From a virus, in IMG/VR virus record IMGVR_UViG_3300045988_079139, positions 4,378 to 68,377 of that record: 64,000 nucleotides of DNA, one strand, 5' to 3'. Below the pieces are notes generated by a model. The model worked only from the letters and a program-made list of their open reading frames with translations, was not told where the DNA came from and searched no databases. Numbering within the stretch: the stretch's first letter is position 1; every line of letters begins with the position of its first letter. Both the position numbers and the translations under genes were made by a program. Shown here piece after piece: positions 31,294 to 53,100 of the stretch.

Positions 31294-34200
31294 ATGAATA
31301 GTTCATTTAGACCCGTGCGTGGTATTGAGGCAAAAATTGTTGACCAGCCTTTGCATGACGGCTATATCTATTTTGCGACTGACAGCGGAAAAATTTATTT
31401 AGACACTGCAACAGATAGATATTCACTTGGTGCTAATGGCGCCGCAGTTTTATATGCAAATGCTGAAAATGTAATTTTTAACACAGATAACTCTTATACT
31501 ATTCTATATAGTTATCTAGATGACCAAAATGCCATTCCAAAAGCTGAAGATTTAGTAATCAATAGTGATGGTCGATTCTTTAGAGTTAATTATTACGATT
31601 CTGCTTCTGGCTTAATTAACTGTAAGCTAATCGCAGTTAGTGGTAGCGGAGGCGGCGGAGGTAATACCCCAGGCAGTCCAGATGCTCCAAGTGATGATCC
31701 AAAAGTAATTAAAGTTACTTATCACGATTTAACTTACTCCTTCTTGAACGGTCGTACATATACAATTGATTTCACTGCATTATCTCAGGTTGACTTATAT
31801 TTAAATATTAGTTATACTGTTAAAAATGCACAAAATCATACTACTGGTTTTGGTAGTATGCAAGTAAAGTCTGGCCAACGTGTAAGCTTGCCAGTAGGTC
31901 AGTATATTACACCAGAAGGCGGCTATCATGCAGTTGATATTATTATTCAGGGTGCTAATGCTTATGAATATACCCGTACTATCAATAGAATTAAATGTGT
32001 TGATTTATAGGTTGCCAATGATCCAGAAAAATTTACTTGTCAAAAAATTTATGATGGAACAATTCCTTATTATGTAAAAGTTGTCGGTCAAATTAATAAG
32101 ACTTTACATATTGAGATTGATGGAAAACCTTTTACTACTAAAACTTTAAGTTCTAGTGAAAGTGATACTTCTATTTACGTGCCGATTGACTGTAAGACAT
32201 TGGGCTTAAATACTGGCGTACATACTATTACTGCATATATGATGGCTGACGGTGTTCCTAGTAACACTATCATGACAGACTTCATTTATCATCCAGAAAA
32301 TGCTGCTGATGCAGTTTATGTTATTGTAACAGAATATCCAGAAGAGTGTATGAGTTATGAGACTCCCGCTGTTTACTACTGGGTATATAATACCGCACAA
32401 ACAGAAGGATATAAAAACTCTCTGTCCTTCACTGTTGATGGTGTAGTTGTAGCAAAAGATATCGTTGAAGCTCAGAACACAGGTACAAGCCTAAGATGGA
32501 ATGTTACTGGTTTGAAACCAGATGCTAAAAATATTTGTGAAATTAACTGCGGTAGCGGCAGCCGTACATTTGAAATTTACTGTCATTATAGTAGTATTTT
32601 TGAACCAACTACTGATGGTGCAGTTTTAATGTTAAGTGCTGAAGGTCGTACAAATAGCACTTCTTTAGAGCGTCGCTTAGAATGGAAATACACTAATGAC
32701 CGTGGTACTTCCTATACCGCTGAATTAAAAGATTTCAACTGGAATAACAACGGTTGGACAATTGATGATGCTACCGGAAGAGATTGTTTAAGAATTAGCA
32801 ATGGAGCTTCTGTAGAGATTCCTATGATGCTATTCCCAAATGCAGCTCCAAATACTGGTGGTTACACTTTTGAATTTGAATTTAAGCCTTATAACTTATA
32901 TTCTTATAATCTTTTAACTCAATCAACTATCACTGTGGAAAATGACAATAACACAGAAGATGATGAAGTTGATATTCTTCGTGAATTTAACTCTGACTTA
33001 GCTGCAATTTCTTATATTGCTACTGGCAATGATGGTAAGGCATACGGTATGTGCTGTGGTACTCAGGATGCTTTCTTCCGCATGAGCGATGGTAAAAATG
33101 TTACTGTCCGCTATACCAATGATACTGTAGTAAATGTTGCTATCACTGTTAATGCAGCGAAAGAACAAATTTGTATGTATGTTAATGGCGTTATGAGTGG
33201 CATGGTCGCTTATAAGAGAAGTTCCGCAAAACTTCCCATTCAGGCTAATAAGTTAATTATTAATTCTGATCAGTGTGACTTGGATATTTATAATATTCGT
33301 ATTTATGACCAGGCATTAACTTCAAAACAAATTGTTCAAAACTATATTGCAAGCACTAAGGACATGGATATTTATAATCAAAATGTTTTTAATGCTGCAG
33401 ATGAAACTGTAAGTTTAGCCGCATTGCAAGATTATAATGATGATAATCCAAGTAATGCGACAATTCCTTATATGATTTTTAAGACTAAATCTCCTGATAT
33501 TTTGCCTTTCAATAAAGCAAATGAAGATGTTATTTGCTCTATTGAATTTGTAAACCCTGCTTTGGACTATGCTTTGGCAAAAGGTGAGATTAACGAGTCT
33601 TATTATAAAAAACACGCACCTAGTTTTACTGCTGATGAAGTTACAATTAATGTTCAGGGTACTTCTTCTCAGAAATATCCAAGAAAGAACTTTAAAGGTA
33701 AGTTTAAGAAAGCAAAAAATTGGCAATGTCGTGAAAAATCTGTAAATGATTTAGTTGGTGATAAGTCACTATCTAAATTCTATATGGATGAAAGTATGGC
33801 AGAAAAAAGCATTTGTTGGAAAGCTGACTATATGGATAGCTCCAGTTGTCACAATACTGGTTTTGCTAGCTATGTGCAAGAGCTATATTGGAATCACCCA
33901 TTAGATTACTATGAAGGAACTAATGTGCCAGCCGCAAACAAGGATGGACAATTGGGTGAATATCGTAAGAAATATCGTACTAGCCTATATGGATTCCCTG
34001 TTTTAGTGTTCCATCAAAAGTCTGATGGTTCTACTGAATTCATTGGCCGCTATAATTTCAACTTAGATAAGGGCGCAGACGATACTCTTGGTATGGCTTT
34101 AGAAAAAAATCATCCAGTATTAACCGACAAAACCTATGATAAGGTTTGTGAATGTTGGGAAATGGCAAATAACATGGGTGGTCGTTGCTCTTTCAGAGGT

Positions 34201-37200
34201 AATCCTTTTGATTATTGCTATGACTATAATCATGTTAATGCTGATGGTACTATCGGTGCTTATATCGTTGATGGTAAAGAGAGTCAGAGCGATATTGGTG
34301 ACGATATTGAAGTACGTTATCATATTAATGGTGATGCCATTGAGGGCGCTTGGGATAATTTAACTAAACCCTTGGATGATGGTGGCACTCCAATTTCTTC
34401 TAGAGAAGCTTTCGAAGTATTGCTTGGAGGCGATGCTGACGGAAACAATAGAACTGGTGCTTATGCGCATTTAGAAAGATTGTTTAAGTGGTTACAGTCT
34501 TGTTATTATGCTTTTGATATGAATACTGATGAAGATAAAGATTGGGTAAGAGAATTATTAGGTCGAGATCCTATTGCCGACGAAGATGGTAAATATTACG
34601 ACGCTAATGGAATTCCTATTGACCCAGACTTTAGAGAATTGAGAAATGCTCGTAAAGTTAAGTTTGAAACTGAATTTGACAAGCATTTAAATAAAGAATA
34701 TTGCACTGTTTATTATATTTTAACTGAATTGTTATTACAATATGACTCTCGTGGAAAAAATATGATGTTATCCTCTTGGGGTCCTATGGAGGCCGGAGGA
34801 GAATATATTTGGTTCCCAATTTTCTATGATATTGACACTCAGCTTGGTGTTAATAACTCTGGTATTCCTTCTTGGGAGTATAACGTAGAACCAACAACTG
34901 GTTTTAATAATCCTGGCGGCAATAGAGCTTTCTCTACTGCAAACAGTTTGTTATGGAATAATTTCCATCAGTCTTATGCGGTTGAAAGTAAATATGTTCA
35001 AGATTATTACCGTTTATTGAGAGGTAGTACTTTAACAATTGCTAAAATTAATGGATATTATAATTTTGATTATGATATTAGTAAGGCTTATTGTATGAAG
35101 GGTATCCTTCCAATTAGTATTATGAATGCAAATCAAAATTATAAGTATATTGCTCCAAGCACTAAAGGTTATATTATTGGCGTCGATGACGCTGGTGCTC
35201 CTAAATATAGAACAACTAGTGCATATTTCTATTGTTTGCAAGGAACAAGAGAATTACATAGAGCCCAGTTATTACGTAATCGCTTCAACTATTACGATAG
35301 TAAATGGATGGCTCAGGACTACCAGCCTGGTACTGGCGGTAGTGCAATGCGTTGGCGTGCCAATGCTTATAATGACCCAGAAGATGCTAGCTTGCGCAGT
35401 CATTTAACATTACAGGTAAGACCTGCATTAGACCAATATCTAGTATTGTGGCCTGATGAAAGTGCAACTTATGTTGTGCCTATTTTTGCTAAGGGTGGCG
35501 AAACGGCTACTATTGATTTGATGAATTTGTTCTCTTCTGGAACTTATCAGCAACAGTTGATTTATATCGGTGGTTATAAATATTTGCAAGAATTTGGCGA
35601 TGTAAGTTTGTTATATCTTGATGAATTTGAATTCCCTGATGATGCTAATAATATTACTAAGATTCAACTTGGTAATGAGAATCCTCGATATAAGCCCAAT
35701 GAGCAGTTTAAAGTTGATGCGATTGATGAAGCAACTCAAAAGAAACCTTTGTTAAAAGTTTTTGATATTACTAATATTGATAAAATCAATAGTAAGATTG
35801 AGCTGTTAGATTCTGTTAAGCTAGAGACTTTTAAGGCTCTTGGTAGTAAAATTACTGGTGCAGTATTTGCTGATGGTGTTAACTTGCATCATTTATATTT
35901 ACCTAATACTGTTAACTCTTTATCATTGAGTAAAGCTACAAATCTAGAAAGAGTTCTATATAGTCCTAGTGAATTAAAAGAAACTTTGGATGATGGTACT
36001 GTTGTTGATACTGAAGGTTTATATATTGAAGATCTTGTAAAAACTGTTAATGGTTCTAAGACCACTAATATTAGTGAAATCAATATTGTCAGTGGCGGGT
36101 TGAAGTTATATAGCTATGATATGCTAAATAAGGTTACTGAAGCTGTCGACAGTATGATTGCTTCTGGTTCTGATGCTGCATTATCTATTAATATGGAAGA
36201 TGTTCATTGGACTCCTTACACTCAGTTGGGCGAGGGTGCTATTTACCAGCAGAGCAAGGTTGATAATTATAAATATGCAACTAATAACTACTCTTTCAGA
36301 GATTATGAATATAGTAATGAAAACCAGTGGCAATTAGATTTGTTAAATGGTCGTATTTATGAATATGTTGAAAGCCCTGTTGCTCCTCCTGTAAATCTTG
36401 ATTTACTTGATGTATATCTGGATCAGGAGAAAGACAGCGAGACTCAAATGCCTAAGCGCTTTACTAATATTACAGATACATTGGCTAAAGCTTTACCAGT
36501 TATTACTGGTGAATTATATATTGATAATGCAAATCATGCTGCGATTTCTGAAGCTGATATTGCTAATGTTTATAATGTTGCTTTCCCAAGTTTATCTATT
36601 AAGGCAGCAAAAGTGGCTGATGCTTATCGAGCTCGTTTTGTTCGTAAAGATGGTAATGTTGAATCTGAAATTAAAGTTTTGCGTTTTAATACGACTGATC
36701 AAAACATTATTATTACACCTCCTTCAGACAATGAAATTTCTACTCCAAACCATTATGACTTTAAGGGTTGGACTACTACCGATCCTGCAACTGTAAATGA
36801 TTTAGATAAATTGCCAATTATTACTGATTTTTCTACTTTTGCATTCTCCGAAAGTGTTCCAGAATTAACTTTCTATGCAGTATATAAGAAGCATGAATAT
36901 CAAATCACCTTCCTAGACCCTGGCGCTTCTGGAAATGATGCTTATGAAGAAGTTATTCCTACTGCTTACGGTTCAATTCTAACTGAACCATCTCGAATTC
37001 CTTATAGAGGTGCTGCTGAAGCAGAGATGGACTTAGATCAAAGACTAACTTTTAAAGGTTGGACTGATGTAAGAGATAATGCTGGTGTCGTTGGTACAGA
37101 AATTTTAAATGGTGTTTTGGTTGATATTTCAACATATAAAGCAGATAGAAATTATACCTTCTATGCTGTATTCACTCAAGAAAGTGTCTACACAAATACT

Positions 37201-37983
37201 ACTGATAACAAGTATTTTACCTTCGGTTATAATTATAATTATGTTGATCCAGTAGATCCTTCTAAGAATGCTGTCGGAAGTACAATTAGAATTTCTTCAG
37301 AATATCAAAATGGTGATTTAAGAGGTAAGATTACTGTGCCAGCTGTTGATGATTAGGGTAACCCAATTGTTTCTATTATGGGCTTTGATACTGATGCAGC
37401 AAAAGCAATTACTCATTTATTCTTTATGCCAGATAATAATATTTTGCAATTTGAATCTCAAGCCTTCGAAGGAAATAACTTTGATAGTAAATTGCAATAT
37501 ATTGACTTCCCAAATCTTACTAAGTTACGCTCAATTAACAGATATGCCTTCCGTTATCTGGATAATTTACAATTATCTGAAATTCCTGCTCCTGTTGTCT
37601 ATGTTGGACAAGAAGCATTTAATGGAAGCTTTGAGTCTTTGTCTGGAATTAAAGAATTCTATATTAATGGTAGTGTAACAAAAATGGACCCTGGAGCTTT
37701 CTCTAACTGTGATGTTCCAATTGAAACTCTATATGTAGGAAAGCCTGGAGACCCAACACAGCTGGATATTAGTTCTTGGAATTCTTCTCAAGCTCCTTAT
37801 TTCCAGCAAAATCAATATTTCCGTCCTAAGACTGTATATATTTATTGTGATGGAGATCGCATTGATGCGTTCCATGCGGCAATGTCTAAGTATGCAGAGG
37901 GTCAATCTATTTTCCAAGTTGCTTGGGAGGGCGAAGAAGAATTAGGACAATATTTTGTTAAAGATGCTAATGATTTTTCTTGA
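31294..37983 (+). CDS. Giant fibre/receptor-binding protein (2,229 aa if both TAGs are read through) with a LamG-like lectin domain and a C-terminal BspA-type leucine-rich-repeat domain
   Basis: RBS ggaaagaaaggag. The 31294, 32179 and 37378 fragments are co-frame, and only the TAGs at 32008 and 37354 separate them. The supposed starts at 32179 (GTG) and 37378 have no RBS. A LamG-type motif, DIYNIRIYDQALTSKQI, lies near 33290. The 37378-37983 segment has a BspA-like LRR pattern. An alternative reading splits it into three genes if these TAGs terminate. Confidence 0.5.
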
Positions 37984-38001
37984 GAAAGGAGTACATAAAT
38001 A

Positions 38002-38199
38002 ATGAAAAAAGAGGTCTTATATACATATTTAGGCACTAATGGTATTATTTGTTCTCCTGTCCATTTAGAGGATACATATTATACTCGCAAAGTGCGTTTA
38101 TATGCCGATAAAGATAAGCGACTAACCAAAGACGGCAAGACCTTCCATAAAGTCGTTGTTGTTCAAGATGAAGAGGTTAGTGAATGGTATGAAGTATAA
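38002..38199 (+). CDS. Small hypothetical protein (65 aa)
   Basis: RBS gagaaaggag, TAA stop. Confidence 0.45.
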   Translation: MKKEVLYTYLGTNGIICSPVHLEDTYYTRKVRLYADKDKRLTKDGKTFHKVVVVQDEEVSEWYEV

Positions 38200-38307
38200 G
38201 GCCAAATATAATTATTTGACTTACTTCATACGTTATATATAACAAAGGGCCAAGGGAATTTTCCCTTGGCCTCATAATAAAAATATAATAGAAAGGAAGA
38301 GTTTAAA

Positions 38308-40272
38308 GTGATTACTTCTCAAAATGTTCAAAATAGTGCCAAGTACTCTGCGTTATTTACTGATGCTTACAATCTGTTGAAGAAAGAAAATGATTTAACT
38401 CAGGGTGAATTAGATCTTGGCGGCTTTACTCGCTTAGAGGAATATTTTACTCGTATGCAAACTTTAAGCGCTAAGCATGTTGGCGAAGTTCAGAATATTG
38501 TAGATATCTTTGATGAGAAAAACAATGTTTATTATGCTAAATATGCGAAGTTCTTAATGCTTCCTCTTGATGAAACTCCTTTTGAAATTAATGCTAACTC
38601 TCGTCAGATTACTGTTCCTGATAATTTCAGAAAGTATGGCGTTAGCTTACATGGTGACCAGATTGCTGAAACTTTATTATTTAGAGTTGATAGATTCTTT
38701 GATTTCCAGGATTTGTTGAATACCACAATTCTAGTTCAGTGGACTAGACCCGGCAAAGAAGCAGAATCTGAGCGCGAAGGCGTTTCTTTAATTACTTTGG
38801 TTGACTATGAAACTGAGCCTGGTAAGATTTGGTTTGGTTGGCCATTAACCTCAGATATTACTAAAGAAGCTGGCGAATTAAAGTTCTCTGTTCGTTTCTT
38901 GCGCAAGAACTCCTCTTCTGGCAATATCTCTTATAGTTTAAATACTTTAACTACTCAAGTTACCATTAAGCCTGCTCTACATCCTAATTTAAATAATAAT
39001 TTAACTATGGATGAAGCTTCTATTTTATTTAGTGAAGCTATTGTAAACAGTCCTTCTACTGGTAGTACTCCTGCCGCTCGTCCTGTATATCTACAGAATT
39101 TGGCACAGAAGGCATGGTTGGTAGACGATGCATTGAAATTAGCTGTTACTGTTAAAACTGGCGATACTGGTGTATTAACTTATACTTGGTATAAGGCTGA
39201 TATTACTGGTGTTGACGCTGATGGTAAGTTTATTATTGCTGATGGTGTTTAGTTAGAAGGTAAGACTGAATTGCGTCGTACCACTGACGTTGTTCGTGCA
39301 GAAGATAAAGCTTATTATTTAGATAGCGAAGATGGCGCTGGTGTTCCTTATTTAGGAGAAATTAAAGCTGGCGTTGATGAAAACAATCAGCCTGTGGGTG
39401 TAAGCACTGACGGAGCCGCTGTCTATGAAAGATATTCTGTGTATGAAATGCCTGCCACTGGAGAAGTTTCTGGTCAGTATTGGGTTATTGCCCAGAATAG
39501 AGCTGGTACTTCCACTGAGCAGACTAAGAGTGTTTACTGTGAAATCCCTGGTCCTAAGACTTTGGTATTTACCGCAGATAAAGCTTTGGCTACTAATGTA
39601 TTTATCGCTGATGATGGTTCTGTAACATTACAGGCAGAGGCCACTCCTGATGATCCTGACCCAGCTCATACCACTCTAACTTATAAGTGGGAAAAGAAGA
39701 CTGCTATTGATGGTGAATATCAGGAAGTTAAAGTTGATGGCACTCCAGTATCCACCGGTAAGACTTTAGTTTTGGCTAAGGCTGGTGAAAATGAAGTGGC
39801 AGCTACTAAGCATATTGGATGGTATCGCGTTACTGCAAAATCTGTAGTAAATCGTGATGAAATGACTTGTGTAAGTGCTCACGATTGTAAGGTTACTGCT
39901 CATCCTACTTTGCCAACTGTCACTTTCCCAACTCAGGAAATTACTTTGGTTAAAGAACATGATGCTGATGATAATGGTGTATTCACTTTGAATATTGAAT
40001 TGGCCGACAAGGGTGGTTTATTACATAGTGAATATTATACTTACACCTGGTATCGTAGTATCACTGATAGCGATCCAGTTGAAGTTAGTGCTGATGATGC
40101 AGATATTATTACTGCTGCTGACATTCTAGCAGAGCATCGTAATAATACTTTACAGGTAAAATTGGCTCCAAACGATGAAGTTGAATTCTACTTCTGTGAA
40201 GTCCGCAATCATTTGAATGGAGAGGTTTCTGGTCCTGCTGTTACCAAGCTATTCAGAGTAAGTGCACAGTAA
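38308..40272 (+). CDS. Structural protein (654 aa, 1 junction TAG at 39250), paralogue of 40298
   Basis: GTG start after gaaaggaag. The 39271 fragment is co-frame, ending at TAA 40270-40272. Residues 60-200 align with the 40298 protein (F.VDRF.D..DL....I.VQ...). Confidence 0.5.
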
Positions 40273-40297
40273 TATTTAAGAAGGAGGGCTGTAATTT

Positions 40298-40981
40298 ATG
40301 ATTACAACTGCTGAAGAGTATTACCGCGCTTTATTTAGAGTTCAAGATGATAATCCTCCAACGCTAGCCCTATTACCTCACGCAGAAACTACTTATAAAG
40401 TTGATTTAAATAAGAGAACTATTGAAACTCCTGAGTTTCTAAGTGTTGCTCGTGACCATAAAGCAGAAAATATCTACTTTGAAGTAGATAGATTCTGCGA
40501 TTATATGGACTTATCAACTTGTTGCTGCATTGTACAATATGAGGCTGGAGAAGGAGAAACTCGTAGAAGCGGTATTTATCCAGTACCTTTTTATGATATT
40601 ACAACACCAAATAATCGTAGAGAAATTGAGAATCAAGGACAGGATATTCCAGAAGGTGGAGAAACCACCGAAACAGATAATCCAGTTTTATATATTAAAG
40701 ATAAAATGTTAGTGCCTTGGTGCTTAGATGGTGCGGCAACCGCTTATCCCGGTCCTATCACCTATTCCCTACAGTTTTATCGTTTGAATATTGATGGTAC
40801 TAAATTCGTTTATAATATGAATACCACTCCAGTAACAAGTGAAATCCTTTATGGCATGGACGTTGTAAAAGAAAATTACAACGGTGCATTTGATATTGAG
40901 CCAGATGAATATCAAAAGATTTTGGCTCGTGTCGTTGCTTTAGAGGGAACATTTGATATTAAGTGGATGGATATGTTCTAA
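40298..40981 (+). CDS. Structural protein (227 aa), paralogue of the N-terminal region of 38308
   Basis: AAGGAGGG RBS, TAG-free, followed by a terminator. Confidence 0.6.
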   Translation: MITTAEEYYRALFRVQDDNPPTLALLPHAETTYKVDLNKRTIETPEFLSVARDHKAENIYFEVDRFCDYMDLSTCCCIVQYEAGEGETRRSGIYPVPFYDITTPNNRREIENQGQDIPEGGETTETDNPVLYIKDKMLVPWCLDGAATAYPGPITYSLQFYRLNIDGTKFVYNMNTTPVTSEILYGMDVVKENYNGAFDIEPDEYQKILARVVALEGTFDIKWMDMF

Positions 40982-40990
40982 TTTTTATAT

Positions 40991-41028
40991 GGGTGGAATG
41001 ATTTAATCGTTCCACCCATTTTTTTATT
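40991..41028 (+). terminator. Rho-independent terminator
   Basis: gggtggaatgatttaatcgttccaccc hairpin followed by atttttttatt. Confidence 0.8.
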
Positions 41029-41051
41029 ATATATAGATTGGAGGGATAAAA

Positions 41052-41711
41052 TTGGCAGATTTAAAATTTTTAATGGGTATTGAGAAGACTAACACTGGCG
41101 ATTCTCGTTTACCTGCCGCAAATGTGGCTATCGTAAAAGGACAAGTATATTTTGCAGAAGATAAATCTAAAAATGGTTTTGCAAGAATTTACTATGATAC
41201 AGAAGATGGAAGACGCGTTACTGTCAATAGCTTATCATCAACCTATGACTCTAGTAATCATGAAATTGCTAGTTATTATGTTACTTTTCCAACCTTACAA
41301 CTGGATTACAGTAGTGGTAAATATGCTTTAATATTTAGTGATGGAAAAGGTTCAAAATCAACTTATAATTTATCAGATATTTATCCCAGTCAGTGGACTT
41401 GGAGCGGAGGTACGACCGCAGGTCCTACTGCTTCTATTAAGTTATTAAGAAATGGTTTAGATTATGGCAATGTCAGTGTTGCTGCGATTCCTACAGCTTC
41501 AACTTCAGCTTCTGGTATTATTACAACCGGAAGTCAGACTCTTGCTGGTGAAAAAACTTTTAATAATAAAATGACTGTTGGTACTGGTTCATCTTCTGGA
41601 ACCATTTTACAAGTCAGTGGTAATGCTAATATTACTTATAAATTAAGTTTCAATGATAAAGCTCATCTACAATATGACAATGCAGATGAATGTCTATATT
41701 TTACATTTTAA
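41052..41711 (+). CDS. Fibre N-terminal-module protein (219 aa)
   Basis: TTG start 6 nt after GGAGGG. It shares the N-terminal motif (KF..G.......L.....V.G.VYFAED....RIYYDTEDG) with 26568, 29448 and 31294. Confidence 0.55.
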   Translation: MADLKFLMGIEKTNTGDSRLPAANVAIVKGQVYFAEDKSKNGFARIYYDTEDGRRVTVNSLSSTYDSSNHEIASYYVTFPTLQLDYSSGKYALIFSDGKGSKSTYNLSDIYPSQWTWSGGTTAGPTASIKLLRNGLDYGNVSVAAIPTASTSASGIITTGSQTLAGEKTFNNKMTVGTGSSSGTILQVSGNANITYKLSFNDKAHLQYDNADECLYFTF

Positions 41712-41724
41712 GAGGTGAAAATTA

Positions 41725-44532
41725 ATGAGTTTACAAGTTTGGTTACCTCTTAATGGACATATAAAAAATTATGGCTTATCAGACGTAACAACCTCATTAA
41801 TTAATAATCCAACTATTGTTGCGTCTAATCGTGGAGAGTGCTATAATTTTAATCCTAGTAATGAAAATAAATAGGCAATTGAAGTAAGCATTCCCGATAT
41901 GCCTAGATGGATTCAAAATGAATTTTCAATCGCATTTTGGTTTTATCATCGAGAAGGTTCTGATAGAAGTGTTATTTTTGGCAATCATCAATATAATGGA
42001 AGCTATACTTTTAATATTGAAAAGCTTGCTAATAACCAATTAAGAGTATATATGTAGGCCAAACCAGATGCTTCTTTTTCTACTTGTACAATAGCCGCAG
42101 ACACATGGACTCATATTACCATTGTTAAAACATCGGATGAATTACGTATTTACAAAGATGGAGTTAAAGTAAGTACTCGCACACATTTATCTTCTGATTT
42201 ATGGCAAGCCGCTGATGGAGTAAAGTATTTATTAGGTAGAGACGGCCGCACAAACAATACTGCATTAAATGGTATGATAAGTGATTTCCGTATTTATGAC
42301 CATATATTATCTCAAAAGGAAATTAAAAATATATCGCAAGGTTTATTATTAAATTATTCTTTTGATGATTTATATATGACTGCTACAACTAATTTAGTGA
42401 ATAAAGCAGATGGAAGTTTTACAAAAAATGCTAGTTCTGTTTGGCATGCAGGATTAAGTTGTCCAAAAGCTTATGTCACTCCTGGAAAAACTTATACTTT
42501 CTCTTGTGAAATGCGTCATACTGGAACCTAGACTTATACAGCTTATTTTGATACGAATTGTACTGATGAGGATGGCGTATATAGTGGAAATGATGCAGCT
42601 ATGCAAAATATTAAATCCAACTCTGGTGCAACAATTCCAAAAGACGGAACATGGGTAAAAATTTGGGTTACAGTAACTATTAAACCGGACGCAGGAAAAC
42701 CATATATTCATCATACAATATGTCCACAGGTTACAGCAGAAGAAGTAACTTTTTATTATCGAAATGTACAATTGGAAGAAGGTCCTATGGCAACACCTTA
42801 TGTTGCTTATAATTCACCAAGAGAAAATTGCATTGTAGATAATTCTGGTATGGGAAGACATGGCAAATTAAATACAAGCAGTTGTTATGTTTCCACTGAT
42901 ACTCCTCTTGGAGAATACTCTTTACATTTAAATGGCTCTGATACTGGGGATAGAGCTTGTGTTATAGGCGATTTAAATTTGGATGATATTAAGACTTACA
43001 CCTTTGCAAGCTATATAAAAATTAATACTTGGGGAAAACAAACAAGTGGTTTGTTTAATGCAAATTATACTTCAAGTTCATCTCCTGGAGATTATACGGC
43101 AAGCCCTATTCATCATCGCGACTCTCATTTTGATATTGCTACGAAAGGTAATACGGTGGCTACAACAGGAGCAACATATCAAAGATTATCTTGTTCAACA
43201 TCAGATATTCCAGTAGGTTAGTGGAAGCATGTCGCAGTTACTTTTGATGGTAAGACAGCTACTTTATATATTGATGGAGTTAAGAAAAGAAGCGTATCAT
43301 TTAGCGCAGCAGTGACTTTAGCACCTTGCAAATATATCTTTTTATCATATTCCTCTGCCGGTGGTGCATAGAGAGTAACAAATGCTAATTGGTCTGATTT
43401 TAGAGTATATTCAACTTGCTTATCTGCTGATGATATTAAAAAATTAGCTTTAAATCATGTGGCAGTAGATAAAGATAATAACTTACATTGTTATGGTCTT
43501 GTAGAAGAAACTAATATTGAACACAATATATCAAAACAGAGTGTGGTTAATGTTGGGGTTAAAGAAGAAGTAAACATCTATCCAGGTTCACAATATAATG
43601 CGGCGTCTATGAATGTTACTTATAATTTTGCAACGGATATATTCAAGGATTATGGATTTAATTCTTGTACCAAATTTGCTGCTTCAAATACATCTACTTC
43701 TGCATTTATGGCTTATTCATATTTGTTACCAATTTCTTACTACACTCCAAATTCTACTTATAGCTTTGCATGTTATGCATATGTTTCACCTGATTGTAAT
43801 GCAAATTTGCGTATCAATTTGGAGCAAAGCACAGGTTGGGTTAAAAATTATTAGAATACAAAAAGCAATATTAATGATACAACAAAAGGACAAGTAATTA
43901 AAGTTACTGGAACTATTAAGGCCAATAGTAACGGAAAAATTTATATAATGTTCTATCCTAACCCGAATCAAGCAAATACTTTTACAACTGGATATTTCTT
44001 GATTGCTGGTTTAACCATAGTCCCTGGAGAAAATATTCCACATCCAAGAGTAGAAAGAATGAGTGGAAATTTAATTTCATCTATGTCTCCTGGCACAAAT
44101 ATGACAGCCAATGGAACTCATAGTTTAATTGGAGATTTTAGTAAAAATTCAGATACTTATGGTTGGTTCAATACTGTTGAACCATTAGAGTTCGATAGAA
44201 TGTATCGCCTAACTTTTAATGTATCTAATTTAACAGATGGTAGTATTTGGGGTTGGAGATTGTGGAATAATGCTAATTACGAATTAAAAGTAGATAGAAA
44301 TGGAAATTATTCTTATACTTTTATTGTAAAACGAAATAAACTTCCTGCGAATGTTAGTTTCCAAAGATTTTTGTGGGATGACGGTGGCCGCACAAATCCC
44401 ACAGGCACAGTTTATTTTAATAATTTTAAACTGGTAGAATGTATTGCTCAACCGTATCATGGAATTTTTGAAACTAATAAAGCAGCTATCCATCCTTCAT
44501 ATATTGAAATGAATAATATATATGAAGATTAA
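41725..44532 (+). CDS. LamG (concanavalin-A-like lectin) two-domain receptor-binding-type protein (935 aa, 7 TAG)
   Basis: RBS agaggtga. The 42274, 42601, 43459 and 43948 fragments are co-frame with only TAG between them. LamG signature motifs are ISDFRIYDHILSQKEI and SDFRVYSTCLSADDI. The N-terminus MSLQVWLPLNGH is paralogous to 47675. Confidence 0.6.
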
Positions 44533-44621
44533 GGGCAGTTTTAATTAAAAGTCCTAATTTAATTTTTAATTCTTATAGAAGGTAAAACTTTCTATAATTT
44601 AATCAAAGGAGAGATTCTATT

Positions 44622-44849
44622 ATGTTAAAGATTGAAAACAAGAATTTGAGTTTCAACGCAGTGAGCATGATCAACGATGAAGTCGTTGCTAGATTCACTT
44701 CCAACTATTATGGAGCTGGCGTCGATTTTAATTATAGTGTTGAGAATGCTGTGGCCCATTTGGCACATTAGGTCGAAGCAGACGCTGATTTTGATGCATT
44801 TAAGGGTCATGTAATGGACACTATTGGTGCAATGGCTACCATTGTCTAA
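44622..44849 (+). CDS. Small hypothetical protein (75 aa, 1 TAG)
   Basis: AAGGAGAG RBS, TAA at 44847, then a terminator. Confidence 0.4.
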
Positions 44850-44863
44850 TAAGAACCATATTA

Positions 44864-44900
44864 GGGGCGAGAGCTGATAAAGCTCTCGCCCTTATTTTTG
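44864..44900 (+). terminator. Rho-independent terminator
   Basis: ggggcgagagct-gataa-agctctcgccc hairpin followed by ttatttttg. Confidence 0.8.
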
Positions 44901-44981
44901 TTTCTCGGACAAATAAAATTAATTATATGAGTTTAATTTTTATACATATATAGAGAAATTTTTGAAAAGAGAGGTGTAAAA

Positions 44982-47663
44982 ATGGCTCAATTAAAAGATT
45001 TAATTGTAGCGGGAGCCTCAAGATTTCTAGGTAAAACTTATTTTGAAGACTCAGTTACATTTAATGACACCTTAATTTTAGCAAAATCGCAAGATTTATC
45101 TGGTATTGCTGATAACAGACCAGCTTTAATCGTAGGTGGATTACCATCAGAGTCTCATGTGGAGATAGATGCCAATGAAATCTAGGCTAAAAGCTCTGGC
45201 ACAGCGATTGCTTCATTATACATTAATAATGATGGTGGCTCAGTAATTTTAAGTGGTAATGTTACTACCGCTGCAGATGGCAATGATGTCACGGCCGCAG
45301 GTGGTGGAGCTTTACGTATTACTGGTGGTTTATCAACTACTAAAGCTTCCTACTTTGGTGGTGCAATTACTGCGGCAAGTACATTAGGAGTTAGCGGTAA
45401 AACAACTTTAAGCGGCGAAGCTTTATTAAAAGGTGTTACTAAAATTGAAAACACTTTAAATGTTACCAAAGCAGTTGATTTTGATAGCACTTTAAATGTT
45501 GATGGCAAATTAACATTAGGTGGCAATATCGCTTATCAAAATGGCTCATATAGTAATTATGATGTAATTAAGTTTCTCACTGGTGATGATAACGGAGCTG
45601 GTGTTGTAATCGGCGGTGGTGGAGTTGCAATTTTTGGTTCCGGTGAATCTGCTTCTAATTTAGCAACTGCCGCAAGCATAAGTGGCACAAGCGAAACTAC
45701 TTATATCACTTCTGATAATAATATTGAGTTTTATACTAATTGCCAAACTATTGGCGATAGAGTTGGTGTTATCCTAAATACTTCTCGATATTTTTATCCT
45801 AATGCTAATAATACCGGTAGTCTTGGTACTTCTGGCAACGTTTGGAATAGTCTATATGTAAATACTGCTAATATTAATGGAAATGCGACTGTTAAAGGAG
45901 CTTTAGTAGTTAATGGTACTACGACTTTAAAAGGAACATTAACTTTAGGTACATATGTAGATCAAGCAACAGTACCCTCCGATGGTGGTATTATTGTTAT
46001 GGATTTACGCAATGCCACTGTAACTCCAGATAGTTTTGGAGATAGAAGAGTTAATTTTTATTTTGACTAGATTACTGATGATTTTTATACAACTACAAGT
46101 GCAACAAGCCCATCTTCTGCCACTAAATGGATGGGTATATTGCATATGAAAGGTTGGAAAGATAGTACTTATGCCGCATGGGAATTAGCTGGTAATGCTG
46201 ATACTACAAGCGTTCAAGATACATTAAGATTTAGATAGGGCGTTGGTAATACTTGGGGAGCTTGGCAATCTGTTATTACTGATGCTAATATTAACCAGTA
46301 TATGGATGGCCGATATGTGAATGTCACTGGAGACTCAATGAGTGGACATTTATATATGACAGGATCTCATGCAAGCAGCAGTACAGCTAATACGTCCTAG
46401 ATTGTCATGGGAACTTCTTCTGCTCAACATTTTGCCTTAACCGCAAATGATAAAGCAGTTGTTTTTAACCCTAGTACAACAAGTACAGATAATCAAATTG
46501 TATTATATTTAAAAACTAATACTCAATCACTTTTCCCCAACGGTATTTCAGTTGGCGGAATTTTATCTACCTCTTCTGGAGCAGATGCTTCTGGTTCAAC
46601 TGGTTCAGGCGACTTAAGAGTAGCTGGCGGCGCAGGTATTGCTAAAAAATTATATGTTGGTTCTAATTTAAGTGTTGGTGGAACTGCCACTATAGCTTCT
46701 ACATTAGATGTGAATGGTGAAGCATATTTCGCTTAGAATATTACTTTTGACGGTGCAGCTAATAGAGATCAATGGATTAGTTTCTTGCACACTGGTTCTG
46801 AAACCGGTTATGATTGGCGCATTGGACATCAAGGAACTGGTTCAAGTGATGCTAACTATTTTGTTATTCAATCTAATTCTACAACTGGCACCTGGACCAA
46901 TGTTTTAAGATTGGGATTAACAAGTTTTGCCGCAGTTTTTGGTGGGTCTATTACTTCTGGAGGAAATGTTGTTCCAGGAACTACTAGTGCTTATACGCTA
47001 GGCACTTCTTCCAGTTATTGGAATAATTTATATACAAATGTTGCAAACGTAGGCAACGGAACAGATTCTTCCAATACTACCACTGGAGCTTTAATCGTTA
47101 ATGGTGGTGTTGGAATTAGTAAAAAATTATATGTTGGTACTAATTTAACAGTAAATGGTAACGCAACTCTTGGTGACGCAACCAGTGATACTCATAAAAT
47201 TAACGGCAACACTACATTCAATGGAATACTATATTTTGCAAATGGCACTACTTATTATATTAATGCTAGTGCAAGTGCTAAATTTTCAGGTTTAAATGTG
47301 GCTGGTAATGCAGCTGTTACTGGTACAATGAATATTGGCGGTAATACAACAATTGGCGATGCCACTTCTGATACTCATAAAGTAAATGGAAATATGACTC
47401 ATAATGGTCATATCTATTTAGCGAATGGTACAACTTATTATATCAATTCTTCTGCTACTGCAAATATTCTTGCATTAACAACTAATGGCGCAGTAAAAAT
47501 GAATGGTAATACAGCATCAAGCAATATGACTTCAGGTCAATTGGTTGTGGTTGGCGGTGTTGGTATAAGCGGTCAAGTTAATGCCAAATCGGTTCGACTT
47601 GACAATGCAGTAAGATTTGAGTATAATAGTACTGATAAATGTGTTGATGTTATATTTGATTAA
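44982..47663 (+). CDS. Tail fibre A (893 aa, 6 TAG) with internal beta-rich repeats
   Basis: The N-terminus MAQLKDLIVAGASRFLG is shared with 50167. The 46407 and 46785 fragments are co-frame. There are repeats GDATSDTHK(I/V)NGN and G.L.V.GG.GI.KKLYVG.NL.V. The segments DNNIEFYTNCQTIGDRVGVILNTSRYFYPNANNTGSLG and GDSMSGHLYM resemble tail-fibre sequence. Confidence 0.65.
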
Positions 47664-47674
47664 GGAGGACGCTT

Positions 47675-50146
47675 ATGAGTTTAATGGCTTGGTATCCTCT
47701 GGATGGTAATACTAGAAATCAAGGGGTTGGTAATCTAACCCCTAGTATTTCAGGTACTCTTACTTATGCAGCTGGAAAAATTGGGGCAAAAAGTCTAAGT
47801 GGTGGAGGATTAACTTGGACTGCCGATTAGACAGCTTCAGTTTTAAATAATAAAGAATTTTCTATTGCCTTTTGGATTAAACCAGTTGGAACTACTTCAG
47901 GTCCGATTTTTGGTAATACCGGCATGGGAGCATCAAACAATAGAAAATTTTGTATTTACGCTTATCCTACTGTTAATGACTTACATTGGAGCTGGATGAA
48001 TGATGCAGCGGAGGTTGTTTATGCAGGAGGGTCAATCAATGGCAGTTTACCCTCTAATAAATGGACTCATGTTTGTATCACATATAAAAATCCTCAAGGA
48101 TATGTATATATTAATGGAGTTTAGAAATCTTCATTTAGTGGAGAAAGTAAATCTTCATCTTTTAAATATGCAACAACAGTATTGCATAATAATACTAGTC
48201 GTTATATTAATGATTTGCGTATTTATAATCATGCCTTGTCTGTTAGAGAAGTCCAATAGGTAAGTCAAGGATTGATATTACACTTACCTCTTAAAGATTA
48301 GGATCTTGAGAGCACTACGAATTTGGCTCCATATCCAACGCCAGGAGCGGCTTATACGCCAGGTTGGGTAACAAATTTACATCCTGATGCAATTTCTGTA
48401 AGTAGTTGGTCTTCTGGATATAATGGCGGAGTTGGAACCCCACAAGCTGGTTATCATGCATATTGGAAAATGATGGATGGTATTCCGACGATGGTGTTTT
48501 AGCATTTAAATTCTCAATTAGGTCTAGGAAATCGTTGGCTAGGAATAAGCTGTGGAGATTTTCAAGGTAAAATTGGACCCTCAAAAACTTATACTATTTC
48601 TTTTAATGCAAAATCTAGCGTTGACGGAGTAGTGATATCTACAGGTTATTATTATCGAACAACAGGAAGCACTTCAAATAATTTTCATGATGGATGTCCA
48701 AGTACAGCCTTAACAACCTCATGGAAAAGATATAGTTTTACTTTTACAACTTTAAATACTTTAGATACTTCTGTTAATGCCTCTATGTATATTTATGGAC
48801 ATAATGGTTCTGTTAATGGCATTGCCTATGTTCGTAATATTCAAGTTGAGCTAAAAGATCATGCGACTTCTTATACACCAACTACTAGAACTGCTAGCAG
48901 TGTTATGGATTGTTCTGGTTATTAGCACCATGGCACAATGGTTGGAACGGTAGTACCAAAAAATGATAGCGCTCGATATGATACTTGTATTTACCAAGGT
49001 GATGGCGTAAATAATTATCTAAAGAGTGGAGCAATTACAATGCCAACTGATAGTGTTACTATGAGTTGTTGGTTTAAAAGTTCAACCACAGGATATAACG
49101 GTTATCACATTCCAATGGCAGTAAATTCTAGTTCTTATGAACTAAGTATTGATTCATCCGGCCATTTTAGAAATGGCTTTGTAATTGGTGGAACTCGTTA
49201 GGTATTAACCACTTCACATACTTCAATTCTTGACGGCAAATGGCATATGATTACTGCTACATATGATGGTGCAACTATTAGACGCTACTTAGACGGTAAA
49301 GAATTAACATCATATGCTACTTCTGCAACTGGAACTTTATCTGGAGTTACTTCTGAGTTGCTTGTAGGTAGTTATGGTAGTGGAGGCTATGGTAATAAAA
49401 ATGCTTATATGAGTGATATTCGTATTTATGCTACGGCTTTAAGTGCGGCCGCAATTAAAACTTTATATGAGTCTAGAGCATCTCTAAATTCCACAGGTAC
49501 TTTAATGACTTATGAATTTATTGAAGATGGTTCAGCAAATATTAAAATGACCAGTGAGGGCTTAATTCGTGCAGGAGTAGTAAGCGAAACACAAACTGCT
49601 TTTGGTATGCCTATAAAGGTTTTAAGTGATGGAAGTGCTTGGGCACGAATTCACTGGATTGATGTTACTGGAGTAAATTCATGGTTTGCTAATGCGACAG
49701 AAGTGGATGAATGTATAGATAAATCTAATCGATTTAGTCGTATGGGTTCAGTTGAAAAATTCATTGGATCTGATGGATATTACGAATTTATGTTAACCTA
49801 TCCTCGATTATCTAAAACAAACTTTAACCGCTGGAAGCAGACAAGCTCTCCAAAAGCAAGTACAGTTACTGGTTTTACACCTATTACGACAGCTTGGTCT
49901 GCTCATAATGGTGGTATTAGAAAACACGGAAGCTCTTGTTTATATAATTGTGATACTGGTTCAACATGGTTTGCTCCAATAGGCCAATATGGAAAATGGA
50001 CTGAAACTCAATATATACCTGCGGCTGACGGAAGTTCTTAGACTGAAACTGAATTATGGGTAAGAATTGATACCTTACCTTCTTTAAATAAAATTAGTAT
50101 GTTTGATAATAAATTTATTCAAGCATTGAATATACATGAAATATGA
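47675..50146 (+). CDS. LamG two-domain receptor-binding-type protein 2 (823 aa, about 8 TAG)
   Basis: AGGAGG RBS. The N-terminus MSLMAWYPLDGN is paralogous to 41725. The 47924, 48632, 48938 and 49247 fragments are co-frame, ending at TGA 50144. LamG motifs are INDLRIYNHALSVREV and MSDIRIYATALSAAAIKTLYESRAS. Confidence 0.6.
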
Positions 50147-50166: not shown

Positions 50167-53100
50167 ATGGCACAACTAAATGATTTACTGGTATTGGGTA
50201 AATCTAATTTATTGGGCGATACTAGTATTTTTGGAGCCTTTAATATTAATGGTAATGTTGCTATCGACGGCACTTTAACTGTTGAAGATGCTACTTCATT
50301 AAAGAGTTCCTTGACAGTTGCTGGATCTTCTACGATTGGCGGAGCCACCACAATTGGTGGAGCTACTACAATTGGTGGCGTCTTAACCGCGTAGGATAAT
50401 ATTAAAGTTTCAAGTAATAAAACAATTATTCAAGCTCAAAGTTCTGGTAGTAACTACACTACAGTTATTAGATGGGATTGGGCGGATAAAGGTTCATTTA
50501 GCTACTATCCGCAAATTGGTCATCATAGTAATGGAGACACTACTGGCGCTATTGTTTTATTGCCATATGCCACTAATGCCAAGCCCTGGGATGCAAATGA
50601 TGGTTTATATATATCTGCGTCTAGATTAAGATGGAATAATTTAATTGCGGCTGATAATAGTAGAAATTTTTATCCTACTCAAAATGGCACTGGTTCCATT
50701 GGTACTTCAAGCTACTATTGGAATAATGGTTATTTAAATAACTTAACTATTAAAACAGCTTTAACTTTAAATGGAACAACATATTTAAATGGTAACTTAG
50801 TTTGGAAGCCAAGTGTTAATATTACTTGTACACCAACTGCTGCGAATCAAGAATTCTCAATTGACGTTGGTAGCAGTTCTTTTACAGGGTCTTATTTCCA
50901 TATTTGGTCTGCAGTTAAATCTACTTCGATTTTAAGTTGTTATCCAGATGATTTATCTGTGAAGATGGGCGGCGCTGTCACTATCGCAGGAGCCATCACA
51001 GCTAATAGTACAGCTTTAATTAAAGGCTCAACTGAAATTCAAAATAATGTTAAAATTACTAATGGTAACTTAACTATTCATAGAGACTCAACAAAGGCTG
51101 CAAATACACCAGCTAAAATTATTTTTTCTAACAAACAAACCGATGGTAATATTACAACAAATTCTGCCTGTATTGCTGCTTATGATGATCATGATGCCTC
51201 AAGTTATGGTCAAAATTTAGTTATTTAGGGTTGTTCTAATGTTGTTGTAGGTGCAGGTGAAAGTGCTACCAGTTTTTATGAAGCAGTTTTAAAAGATAGT
51301 TCATCAGAAGGTTTATATCTAACTTCTGATGGTAGTATTTATTTCTATCCTAAATGTGACACTGTTGCTAATAGAGTTGGAGTAATTCTTGATACTTCAA
51401 GACAGTTTTATCCCGACTCAAATAACACTGGTTCTTTAGGTGTAAGTTCTTACCGCTGGGCAAATGCATACATTGGTAATTTAAATGCTTCAGGAACTGG
51501 TACAATTTCTGGCAATACTTCTATTGGAGGCACATTAAGTGTAAGTAGCACTTTAACAGTTGGTAGTACCACATTATTAAAAAATACCTTAACTGTTCAA
51601 GGCAATATTTATATTAATCAAACTGCAGGTACAGGTACTGGCCTAGCTTTGTACGGAACAAGTGCACCTGCAACATATGGAGTTTATTTTGCTCAAACTG
51701 CTAATTTTAGTAAGCATGGCGACGTTCAAGGAGATTGGGCAACTTACTTTGGAATGAATGCCGTTGGTACAAGAGGTTGGATTTTCCGTCCTGGTACAAC
51801 AAATGTGGCAAGTATTTCCGCAAATGGTGTAGCATCTTTTTCTGCTATCGGTGATGGTGTTGCTTATTTAGCATTCCCCAAGGGCGGCACTCTAACTATT
51901 GGCTCTAGTGGCCAAAAAGGATATTTAACTATTGTAATGCCAGCAGGATTTAACTCCACAATGGTTAAATTCAAGGTATCTGTTTATAATTATTCAACCG
52001 GCACTTCTGTTGACTATATTATCGGAGGTTATTGTTATTCTTCTGATAATAAATGGTATAATCCAACTGCATATTGTATTGGTCCTAGAGGTAGCGGATT
52101 AGCAAACTTAACTGTTAATTACGGTATGTCTGGAAGTAATCCAGCAATTCAGATTGGTGCGGCAGACACAACTTGGGAATATCCAAATATCGCAATTTCT
52201 GATGTTTATTTAGGTCATAGCCGTAATTATTCTAATTGGTCTAAGTCATGGACCGTAAGTATTACCACAACTGCTATTACTTCTATCACACAAACTATAT
52301 CCAATACTTATATGGCCAACTTTAGCGGTACAAATAATAAAGTTGCTAAATTCTCTAATAGTGGTCTTAATATTACTAATAGTAATATTACTGATGATGG
52401 CTCCACTGTTACTATTGGTTCTAAACTTGTTGTTTAGGGTAATGGTAGTTCATATAATGAAGGTATTCGTATTTTACCAGCTTCAAATGGTTGGTCAAAT
52501 ATCTTCTTCTCCGCTGACTCCAGCGTTTAGGGAACTCATGATGGTGGATGGCTGATCGGACGACGCGGTGCCGTAGGTTCAACCGCAGGAGCTATTGGTG
52601 ACTTCACTATTGAAGAACAAGATTCTTCTGGCGTTAACCTCACTATTCACAAAGATGGTAATGGCGCAACGTTAATGGGTAGTTTACGCATTAATAAACC
52701 GATCATTTATAGCACAGAAGCTTCCGGTACTCGTATTCTGTATGGATCTACTCGTAATTCAGGTATGAAATATGACTATAGTGGCAATGAAAGTTTCATG
52801 ATTTCTGCTGGTACTTATGCATCTGCATCAATTCTACTATTGACCGGTGGACAATTAAATATGAATGATAGTAATGGTCAATGGAATGCTAGTACAACTG
52901 TTCCAGCAATGTCTCTGCGTAAGTCAGGTGTTGCAGTTAATTATAACTTAACTTCTGACCCAACTCATAATTTTTATGTTAAGGGTACTTCAAAATTTGA
53001 TGGTGTTGTTTTTGGTTATAATTATATTAATTCAAGTAACGCTGCAGCTTTTATGTGGGACAAGAATGGAACTAACTACACAGGCGTTGGTTCTTGTGGC

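Follow-up and report, generated by a model that had tools for sequence, protein, structure and literature searches.

Our analysis suggests that the LamG domains in this viral DNA probably belong to a tail fiber host-recognition cluster in which TAG is read as sense, where two of the three proteins that carry them would form part of two-part fibers. The 64,000-nt stretch analyzed here (the window) probably derives from a large phage that infects an anaerobe. Five recurrent motifs within it are best explained as the C-terminal strands of five ConA-like/LamG β-sandwich domains in three structural proteins (table 1).

Table 1. Features of the window discussed in the text, in window coordinates
Feature	Position	Strand	Remarks
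Tape measure, 3125 aa	3459–12836		Upstream of fiber cluster
2229-aa fiber-like virion protein (putative)	31294–37983	+	ORF with TAG as sense; TAG at 32008 and 37354
Divergent ConA-like/LamG jelly-roll domain (predicted)	32620–33333	+	About residues 443–680; ends in DIYNIRIYDQALTSKQI (33283–33333, frame 0)
212-aa short fiber-like protein	41073–41711	+	C-terminal tail motif YDNADECLYFTF at 41673–41708
935-aa LamG-headed protein	41725–44532	+	6 in-frame TAG
LamG-1 of 935-aa protein	41881–42327		Motif 42277–42324, frame 0
CBM_4_9 of 935-aa protein	42421–42705		
LamG-2 of 935-aa protein	42943–43440		Motif 43393–43437, frame 0
Small conserved ORF, ~76 aa	44622–44852	+	One in-frame TAG; read from the sequence
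Strong intrinsic terminator	44862–44894		14 pairs, 8 G-C; after the ~76-aa ORF
893-aa tail-fiber-like protein	44982–47663	+	5 in-frame TAG; PHROG structural/tail fiber matches; tail motif YNSTDKCVDVIFD at 47622–47660
823-aa LamG-headed protein	47675–50146	+	8 in-frame TAG
LamG-1 of 823-aa protein	47837–48256		Motif 48206–48253, frame 1
CBM_4_9 of 823-aa protein	48527–48799		
LamG-2 of 823-aa protein	49001–49456		Motif 49409–49456, frame 1
Exchangeable C-terminal domain of 823-aa protein	49475–50143		
1340-aa tail-fiber-like protein	50167–54189	+	6 in-frame TAG; last of cluster

Five Motifs and the Domains That They Close

The initial annotation had proposed five LamG domains from a recurrent peptide motif, and all five peptide strings were located at the positions it gave, on the + strand. 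A six-frame scan with the core expression R[IV]Y..[AICVL]L[ST] matches just these five sites. Across 200 codon shuffles the core returned 0.225 matches on average, and a stricter expression that matches four of the five sites returned 0.0; chance is expected to account for none of them. Every motif represents the final strand of Pfam Laminin_G_3 (PF13385), at the last ~16 profile positions. Scanned singly, four of the domains exceed the curated gathering threshold of this profile (27.6 bits), at 85.0 and 67.1 bits in the 935-aa protein and 67.4 and 73.9 bits in the 823-aa protein, and their alignments run to the end of the 151-position profile (position 150 or 151). Profile-level LamG matches, whose absence would have refuted the initial proposal, are thus returned for four of the proposed domains; the fifth is supported by its fold, its score lying below the cut-off.

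This divergent domain scores 24.5–24.6 bits against PF13385 (E 3e-5; profile positions 16–150 of 151), and 12 of 22 homologs match the profile at E ≤ 0.01, the best at 5e-6. A search with its own profile against PDB sequences gave no LamG, only a spurious 60-residue match to dihydrolipoyl dehydrogenase, so that a fold search was needed. The AlphaFold2 model is a β-sandwich (pLDDT 86, pTM 0.82) with 372 Foldseek matches in the PDB at E ≤ 1e-3, to ConA-like jelly rolls. The best solved matches are clostridial neurotoxin HCN (Toxin_R_bind_N), within BoNT/TeNT Hc, and NTNH (E 3e-11, TM 0.5), a likeness of fold only, at 10–14% identity; matches to Toxin_R_bind_N itself, which also occur in the 823-aa protein, are weak (16.9–20.2 bits, below the cut-off of 23.8). 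The fifth domain is thus ConA-like by its predicted fold and not a PF13385 member by score. The two-sheet jelly roll is likewise found in the model of the 823-aa protein type.

The 2229-aa protein that contains this domain would be a single giant fiber-like polypeptide, with the ConA-like domain as one of several adhesin-type modules. The others are a weak CotH-like region (33454–35793), with no match among PDB sequences, Flg_new-type repeats and, at the C-terminus, a BspA-type LRR, which scores 37.5 bits with LRR_5 and whose alignment profile matches the BspA-like structures 4gt6 and 4fs7 at E 5e-22. The 110 homologs of the protein, mostly 2100–2600 aa, are colinear over 93–100%, and nearly all possess a C-terminal PF13306, which indicates that both TAG codons of the gene are read through.

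TAG Read as Sense

Under the standard code the region splits into ORFs of just 85–290 aa, which could be taken for decayed pseudogenes with the motifs as relics in broken frames. We reject this explanation as having next to no probability, because the interrupting codon is always TAG, never TAA or TGA: the coding frames contain no TAA, no TGA and several TAG, long ORFs emerge only with TAG as sense, and the three LamG genes are whole only under that reading. In-frame TAG occurs in conserved genes whose terminators are only TAA or TGA, a code-15-like pattern that recurs across the whole tail module, and the TAG positions are spanned by full-length homologs, known at 94% down to 28% identity. 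Code 11 also fails to translate the orthologous locus of a relative (L001), whose genes carry TAG mostly at other positions, which again argues against decay. In aligned TAG columns glutamine is the commonest partner (15 of 58), and TAG, translated as sense, is most likely read as Gln. A tRNA search of the window, about one-third of the expected genome, returned no tRNA and hence no suppressor tRNA(CUA); the relatives' genomes are ~200 kb, so a suppressor could sit outside the window. The proposal that the LamG domains are spread over several proteins is borne out, by three proteins, provided that the in-frame TAG codons are read through. The recoding of the LamG genes had been overlooked in the initial annotation.

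A Tail Fiber Cluster with Two Fiber/LamG Gene Pairs

The LamG genes lie among fiber genes, downstream of a tail-tube-like protein and the tape measure, and flanking genes match PHROG families of virion structural, tail and tail fiber proteins. Both genes for LamG-headed proteins begin directly past a fiber gene, 13 nt after the stop codon of the 212-aa gene and 11 nt after that of the 893-aa gene, and both of these fiber genes end in Y-[DN]-x-[TA]-[DN]-x-C, in this phage extended to Y-[DN]-x-[TA]-[DN]-x-C-[VL]-x-x-x-F. The small ORF and the terminator stand between the two pairs; L001 encodes an 80-aa ortholog of the former in the same place. The 893-aa and 1340-aa fibers have the N-terminus MAQL(K/N)DL in common. 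The same gene order is found in L001, on a contig of 208.7 kb, relatives of this phage generally being contigs of ~200 kb, and the presence of NrdD is a signature of an anaerobic habitat. Megablast of 41725–50146 against 50,697 phage records gave zero matches, and a search of 185,579 reference genomes for related prophages or a host yielded 11 pattern matches without a homolog among them.

Aligned to each other, the 935-aa and 823-aa proteins are colinear over ~640 aa (E 6e-19), and by this measure they are diverged paralogs that share the order LamG, CBM_4_9, LamG, variable C-terminus. The CBM_4_9 modules both exceed the PF02018 cut-off of 25.9 bits (31.4 at residues 233–327 of the 935-aa protein, 33.3 at residues 285–375 of the 823-aa protein). 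The C-terminal part of the 935-aa protein is β-rich and comprises ~360 aa; its syntenic ortholog in L001 has 960 aa and is 53% identical. The C-terminal domain of the 823-aa protein, found in only 53 of 120 homologs, has no match in PDB sequences or Pfam when searched as an alignment. The LamG-N domain, by contrast with this variable part, starts at residue 1 in all 118 homologs, among which a search for fused shaft–LamG proteins found none.

Sugar Binding and Its Alternatives

The 823-aa type was modeled on P0001, which is 94% identical to the 823-aa protein. The AF2 model (pLDDT 88) comprises four β-domains, shows as a monomer no sign of trimerization, and in Foldseek matches neurexin/laminin LG arrays, neurexin LNS, BoNT Hc, CBM22 and trans-sialidase lectin domains. 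It also matches 744 viral (BFVD) models at E ≤ 1e-3, and the best viral structural match is from phi-Grn1 (E 2e-27).

From sequence, the initial annotation had read the LamG modules as carbohydrate-binding and as pointing to diverse glycans such as teichoic acids or capsule. On this view all five would be lectins, each for a different cell-wall glycan of the host, and several domains would broaden glycan recognition. We consider this unlikely, although membership of the ConA-like lectin/glucanase superfamily, the neighboring CBM_4_9 modules above cut-off, the fold matches to trans-sialidase lectin domains and CBM22, and the place of the genes within a host-recognition cluster all speak for it. 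A ConA-like fold alone does not imply sugar binding. Among solved structures, neurexin/laminin LG domains come closest, together with the N-terminal half of Hc from clostridial neurotoxins; the LG domains bind mostly proteins, and the Hc half is not known to have an established role in sugar binding. Moreover, the N-terminal LamG is shared, fixed in position and paired with a conserved fiber tail, the signature of an attachment domain, while the variable part of these proteins is the C-terminus.

The LamG/CBM proteins might instead stick the virion to non-host polymers of its habitat, such as mucus or plant fiber, and so raise encounter rates, as in the 'adherence to mucus' model for the Ig-like Hoc. 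CBM_4_9 modules typically bind plant or β-glucan polysaccharides, and their Pfam matches here, the anaerobic-habitat signature and the BspA-type LRR and Flg_new adhesin modules of the 2229-aa protein are consistent with such a role. We nevertheless hold it improbable, since the genes are inside the fiber cluster and translationally adjacent to fiber shafts, and the homologous region of Vibrio phages is a hotspot at which receptor-binding proteins recombine, as expected of host-specificity determinants.

Homologs in Cultured Phages

The closest characterized homolog of the 823-aa protein is VP6E351A_0367 (QZI87535.1) of Vibrio phage 6E35.1a, which is 24% identical, colinear over 86% of the 823-aa protein, and likewise has an N-terminal LamG at residue 1. 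Orthologs occur in the KVP40-like Schizotequatroviruses D479, VH7D, ValKK3 and phi-Grn1. The Vibrio LamG genes begin 7–11 nt past a tail fiber gene ending in ...Y-N-S-[ST]-x-x-S-I-D-F-x-F, and in D479 and 6E35.1a the pair lies inside the long-tail-fiber cluster, with the homolog between long tail fiber genes. Unlike the present phage, with its 3125-aa tape measure and TAG recoding, these are T4-like myoviruses of standard code, and their proteins share only 24–35% identity, are longer (1057–1152 aa) and differ in their C-terminal parts. Mass spectrometry places VP6E351A_0367 in purified 6E35.1a virions, at 52/52 spectral counts (PMC12028318, Table S4), similar to the 49/77 counts of the adjacent fiber protein, and the gene lies in a hotspot of recombination among long tail fiber receptor-binding proteins (PMC12028318, main text and Tables S4 and S8). 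The virion finding concerns this 24% identical homolog.

These counts also bear on the idea that the downstream LamG proteins are fiber assembly chaperones or transient caps, absent from the mature virion. Their place right after fiber genes does resemble that of fiber–chaperone pairs, for example the chaperone caps that PMC10579305 names in its title. At 800–1100 aa, however, they are far above the size of known fiber chaperones, and the 6E35.1a homolog is found in purified virions in counts equal to those of the neighboring fiber, so that we regard a chaperone role as very improbable.

A role in host recognition is supported by the tail fiber cluster, by the CBM_4_9 between LamG domains and by the homolog in virions. 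Two further findings bear indirectly on host specificity, namely the exchange of the C-terminal domain among homologs and the recombination hotspot in Vibrio phages.

A Possible Joint Between Fiber Shaft and LamG

The tail motif precedes a LamG gene twice in the window, twice in L001, and also in loci L004, L005 and L006. Across 63 distinct IMG/VR loci it was found in 34. Of 58 motif-ended ORFs, 48 have a LamG start within the next 240 nt and most others have one at 260–350 nt; about one-third of the loci are without a recognizable motif-ended gene directly upstream. Across phages the consensus tail is Y-[DN]-x-[TA]-[DN]-x-[CSA]-[LIV]-x-F-x-F-stop, and the fiber/LamG pairing is seen in dozens of uncultured phages as well as in the cultured T4-like Vibrio phages.

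Such pairing suggests that the N-terminal LamG of the two proteins may attach to the fiber rather than to a glycan, although tight pairing could also reflect mere co-expression or co-assembly. We propose that the 935-aa and 823-aa proteins are the distal subunits of two-part tail fibers: the LamG that starts at residue 1 would dock on the conserved tail at the shaft's C-terminal end, leaving the host surface, plausibly a polysaccharide, to be contacted by the CBM, by the second LamG and, most of all, by the exchangeable C-terminal domain. We tentatively extend this proposal, as a possibility short of probable, to a widespread plug-and-socket, in which the N-terminal LamG and a fiber tail of ~13 residues would serve to attach exchangeable distal recognition proteins to shafts that are otherwise unrelated (205–1233 aa). 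Its range would take in the T4-like Vibrio phages in culture as well as TAG- or TGA-recoded metagenome phages, often with at least two pairs per genome. The conserved start MSLxVWLPL(xG) was also considered as a docking signal and rejected as specific evidence, since Laminin_G_3 domains in general have this as their canonical first strand.

Two-part or branched fibers such as gp38 on gp37 in T2/S16 and LtfA/LtfB in DT57C offer an analogy, drawn from general background and PMC4728585. There, as here, the gene of the distal recognition protein adjoins the shaft gene, the protein is proposed to attach to the C-terminal end of the shaft, and distal modules are exchangeable. Attachment in the present phage is inferred from gene pairing, and neither gp38 nor LtfA/LtfB has any sequence or fold relationship to the LamG proteins.

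Implications

LamG tail proteins are already common and widely annotated in phages, and the five domains belong to an ordinary kind of host-recognition protein; because such domains are common, finding them adds little to what is known. Isolate phage proteins annotated as 'LamG-like jellyroll fold domain-containing' (PF13385) share the domain family and the multi-β-sandwich architecture, among them minor tail proteins of Synechococcus, Streptomyces and Arthrobacter phages and a putative adhesin of Pseudomonas phage PaBG, but none is close in sequence by megablast. The practical consequence is for annotation: the standard code makes the fiber genes look like debris, whereas TAG as sense yields a complete multi-fiber host-recognition cluster of ~27 kb. 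Should the proposed docking prove true, it would provide a simple sequence rule for finding distal receptor-binding subunits in many uncultured large phages, and a natural modular joint for host-range engineering.

Motif sites and recoded genes

All five peptides quoted in the initial annotation, which had proposed at least five LamG/ConA-like lectin domains with a shared motif in several proteins, were found on the + strand (33283-33333, 42277-42324, 43393-43437, 48206-48253 and 49409-49456). A regular expression for the motif core, run over six frames of the whole 64-kb window, matches exactly those five sites, against a mean of 0.225 matches in codon shuffles; a stricter expression, matching four of the five sites, finds nothing in the shuffles. 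The sites are therefore real and above chance. The locus search independently singled out [NQ]DxR[VIL]Y[DN]Hx[LI] as the best-conserved segment of the family. Since all four Laminin_G_3 (PF13385) alignments reach profile position 150 or 151 of 151, the motif represents the last strand of that profile.

Under the standard bacterial code, the 41.7-50 kb stretch offers ORFs of only 85-290 aa. TAA and TGA are absent from the coding frames, which have several TAG per 2 kb, and reading TAG as sense opens long ORFs across the entire + strand block. The 823-aa protein has 121 full-length homologues (the closest, likewise of 823 aa, is 94% identical), and the 2229-aa protein has 110, most of them 2100-2600 aa long. 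On a 208.7-kb contig, an orthologous locus shows identical gene order and is not translatable under code 11 either; its TAG codons lie mostly at other positions than in the window, and Gln is the commonest residue aligned opposite TAG (15/58). The ORFs, homologues and orthologous locus together place the five motifs in three proteins rather than many fragments. No tRNA, suppressors included, was found within the 64-kb window.

Throughout the + strand structural block (1-56700) TAG is a sense codon and stops are TAA or TGA only; several minus-strand genes at the window's right end are without in-frame TAG. In the IMG/VR relative loci L027, L041, L051 and L056, TGA encodes the invariant Trp of MxLxVWLPL at the start of the LamG gene (near locus position 5001), so some family members would come from phages reading TGA as Trp. 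Within one protein family, some phages thus appear to read TGA as Trp and others TAG as sense.

Features of the window, with TAG read as sense in the + strand genes
Feature	Position	Strand	Remarks
3125-aa protein	3459-12836	+	33 TAG; tape measure
2061-aa protein		+	TAG as sense
2229-aa protein	31294-37983	+	2 TAG
935-aa protein	41725-44532	+	6 TAG: 41872, 42055, 42529, 43219, 43369, 43852
Small conserved ORF	44622-44852		~76 aa; one TAG
Intrinsic terminator	44862-44894		strong; 14-bp stem
893-aa protein	44982-47663	+	5 TAG
823-aa protein	47675-50146	+	8 TAG
1340-aa protein	50167-54189	+	6 TAG
RuvC-like nuclease	57294-57776	-	
dUTPase	57779-58315	-	
Anaerobic ribonucleotide reductase NrdD	59906-62110	-	503 bits

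Domain composition of the LamG-headed proteins

The 935-aa and 823-aa proteins each feature two Laminin_G_3 matches in Pfam with a CBM_4_9 match in between. Scanned singly, the four LamG domains score 85.0, 67.1, 67.4 and 73.9 bits, well above the 27.6-bit cut-off of this 151-position profile. The two proteins are colinear over ~640 aa (22% identity, E 6e-19) with unrelated C-termini, and by sequence are paralogues. Of 120 homologues, 116 have the N-terminal LamG, 117 the second LamG and 86 the CBM, but only 53 carry the C-terminal domain, which marks the C-terminus as the exchangeable part; this domain has no match in Pfam or PDB sequences. In 118/118 homologues, residue 1 is the first of the N-terminal LamG.

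A model of the 823-aa type, built on P0001, a homologue 94% identical to the window protein, is predicted with four β domains (pLDDT 88) that resemble neurexin LNS and laminin LG arrays, BoNT Hc, tandem CBM22 and the trans-sialidase lectin domain. At E<=1e-3 it has 744 matches among predicted viral proteins, the names 'LamG-like jellyroll fold domain-containing protein', 'minor tail protein' and 'putative adhesin' being frequent among these. Phage tail and fibre proteins commonly contain LamG/ConA-like domains, which existing annotations already name; the LamG/ConA-like call was thus correct, for new, highly diverged members of a known domain kind. The accompanying proposal of teichoic acid or capsule as ligands is speculation.

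The remaining domain, in the 2229-aa protein, is divergent. It scores 24.5 bits, under the 27.6-bit cut-off, and no LamG turned up when PDB sequences were searched with its profile; 12/22 of its homologues match Laminin_G_3 at E<=0.01. Its AlphaFold2 model (from 22 homologues) is a β-sandwich (pLDDT 86, pTM 0.82) with 372 solved-structure matches at E<=1e-3, the best being clostridial neurotoxin Hc chains and NTNH (E 3e-11). The matched neurotoxin part is the N-terminal jelly-roll half, a ConA-like clan member. On its predicted fold we accept this domain as ConA-like; its score falls short of PF13385 membership.

The domain lies internally, amid a weak CotH-like region, Flg_new-type repeats and a BspA-type LRR, which together make an adhesin-like mosaic. 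The CotH kinase-like match (aa 1113-1244; 34630-35025) scores 19.9 bits, below its 23.8 cut-off; CotH is matched by 4/20 homologues (up to E 1.4e-7), and a PDB sequence search returned nothing for this region. A CotH-like module within a phage fibre-like protein is unusual. The LRR (PF13306, aa 2048-2139; 37354-37983) comes after the second in-frame TAG at 37354, and a 201-aa ATG ORF (37378-37983) could encode it alone. Read-through is favored because the LRR is fused to the C-terminus of 2100-2600-aa homologues; this TAG might still be a leaky stop yielding two products.

A conserved fibre-tail/LamG gene pair

A gap of 11-13 nt separates each LamG-headed gene from the stop codon of the fibre-like gene before it. 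The upstream proteins (212 and 893 aa) are otherwise dissimilar, yet have in common a short C-terminal tail of the Y-[DN]-x-[TA]-[DN]-x-C type (...LQYDNADECLYFTF and ...FEYNSTDKCVDVIFD). Four other contigs show the pairing too; one of these is not recoded and just 28% identical. In 34 of 63 distinct IMG/VR loci a motif-ended ORF lies <=120 nt upstream of the LamG start, and several more have one slightly farther off or with a variant motif. Across all loci, 48 of 58 distinct motif-ended ORFs are followed by a LamG start within 240 nt (mostly 10-15 nt); for most of the remainder the distance is 260-350 nt. Two pairs occur in several genomes. Here the order is putative shaft, LamG-headed protein, small ORF (with an 80-aa orthologue in L001), terminator, second putative shaft and second LamG-headed protein.

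The same pairing is present in the cultured, T4-like Vibrio phages VH7D, D479 and 6E35.1a, where the gene upstream carries a tail fibre protein annotation and both genes sit inside the long-tail-fibre cluster. VP6E351A_0367 of 6E35.1a (QZI87535.1) shares 24% identity over 86% of the 823-aa protein. It was detected in purified particles by mass spectrometry (52 and 52 counts), comparable to the adjoining fibre protein (49 and 77) and to one of the distal subunits of the long tail fibre (50 and 60). The 195-205 kb region is described as a hotspot of recombination that encodes receptor-binding proteins of the long tail fibres (PMC12028318, main text and Tables S4, S8).

Tail module and proposed fibre architecture

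Positions 1-54 kb form a tail module, with a tail-tube-like structural protein, the tape measure and further tail proteins, followed by ~27 kb of fibre-like genes. Provided that tape measure and tail lengths scale as usual, a 3125-aa tape measure would mean an exceptionally long tail. The 893-aa and 1340-aa fibres have a common MAQL(K/N)DL(I/L)V N-terminus (44982-45030, 50167-50215). The 1340-aa C-terminus, ...KVNGRIWIKVK (54150-54186), is seen again in the relative loci L001, L004 and L005, where fibre-like proteins of 291-1629 aa end in it, perhaps as a second conserved terminal module. An N-terminal G-x-[FIV]-Y-[FL]-[AT]-[ET]-D...[IL]-Y-[LVY]-[DG] segment common to the 569-, 2229- and 212-aa fibre-like proteins (29448-29580, 31294-31410, 41073-41200) is possibly a baseplate-attachment domain. 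The minus-strand genes, including NrdD, point to an anaerobic host. Relatives' contigs reach 214 kb; no relative was found in 185,579 reference genomes, and isolated phages gave no close DNA match.

Two aspects of this locus are less ordinary: the TAG recoding, without which these genes cannot be seen, and the conserved pairing of a fibre tail with a LamG gene. From its fixed position and its pairing with the conserved shaft tail, the N-terminal LamG is best explained as an attachment module, a reading drawn from co-occurrence only; the MSLxVWLPL start gives no independent support for docking, being the canonical first strand of PF13385 generally. The 935-aa and 823-aa proteins would then be distal subunits of two separate two-part fibres, in which the N-terminal LamG would attach to the conserved shaft tail, and the CBM, second LamG and exchangeable C-terminal domain would be the host-facing parts.
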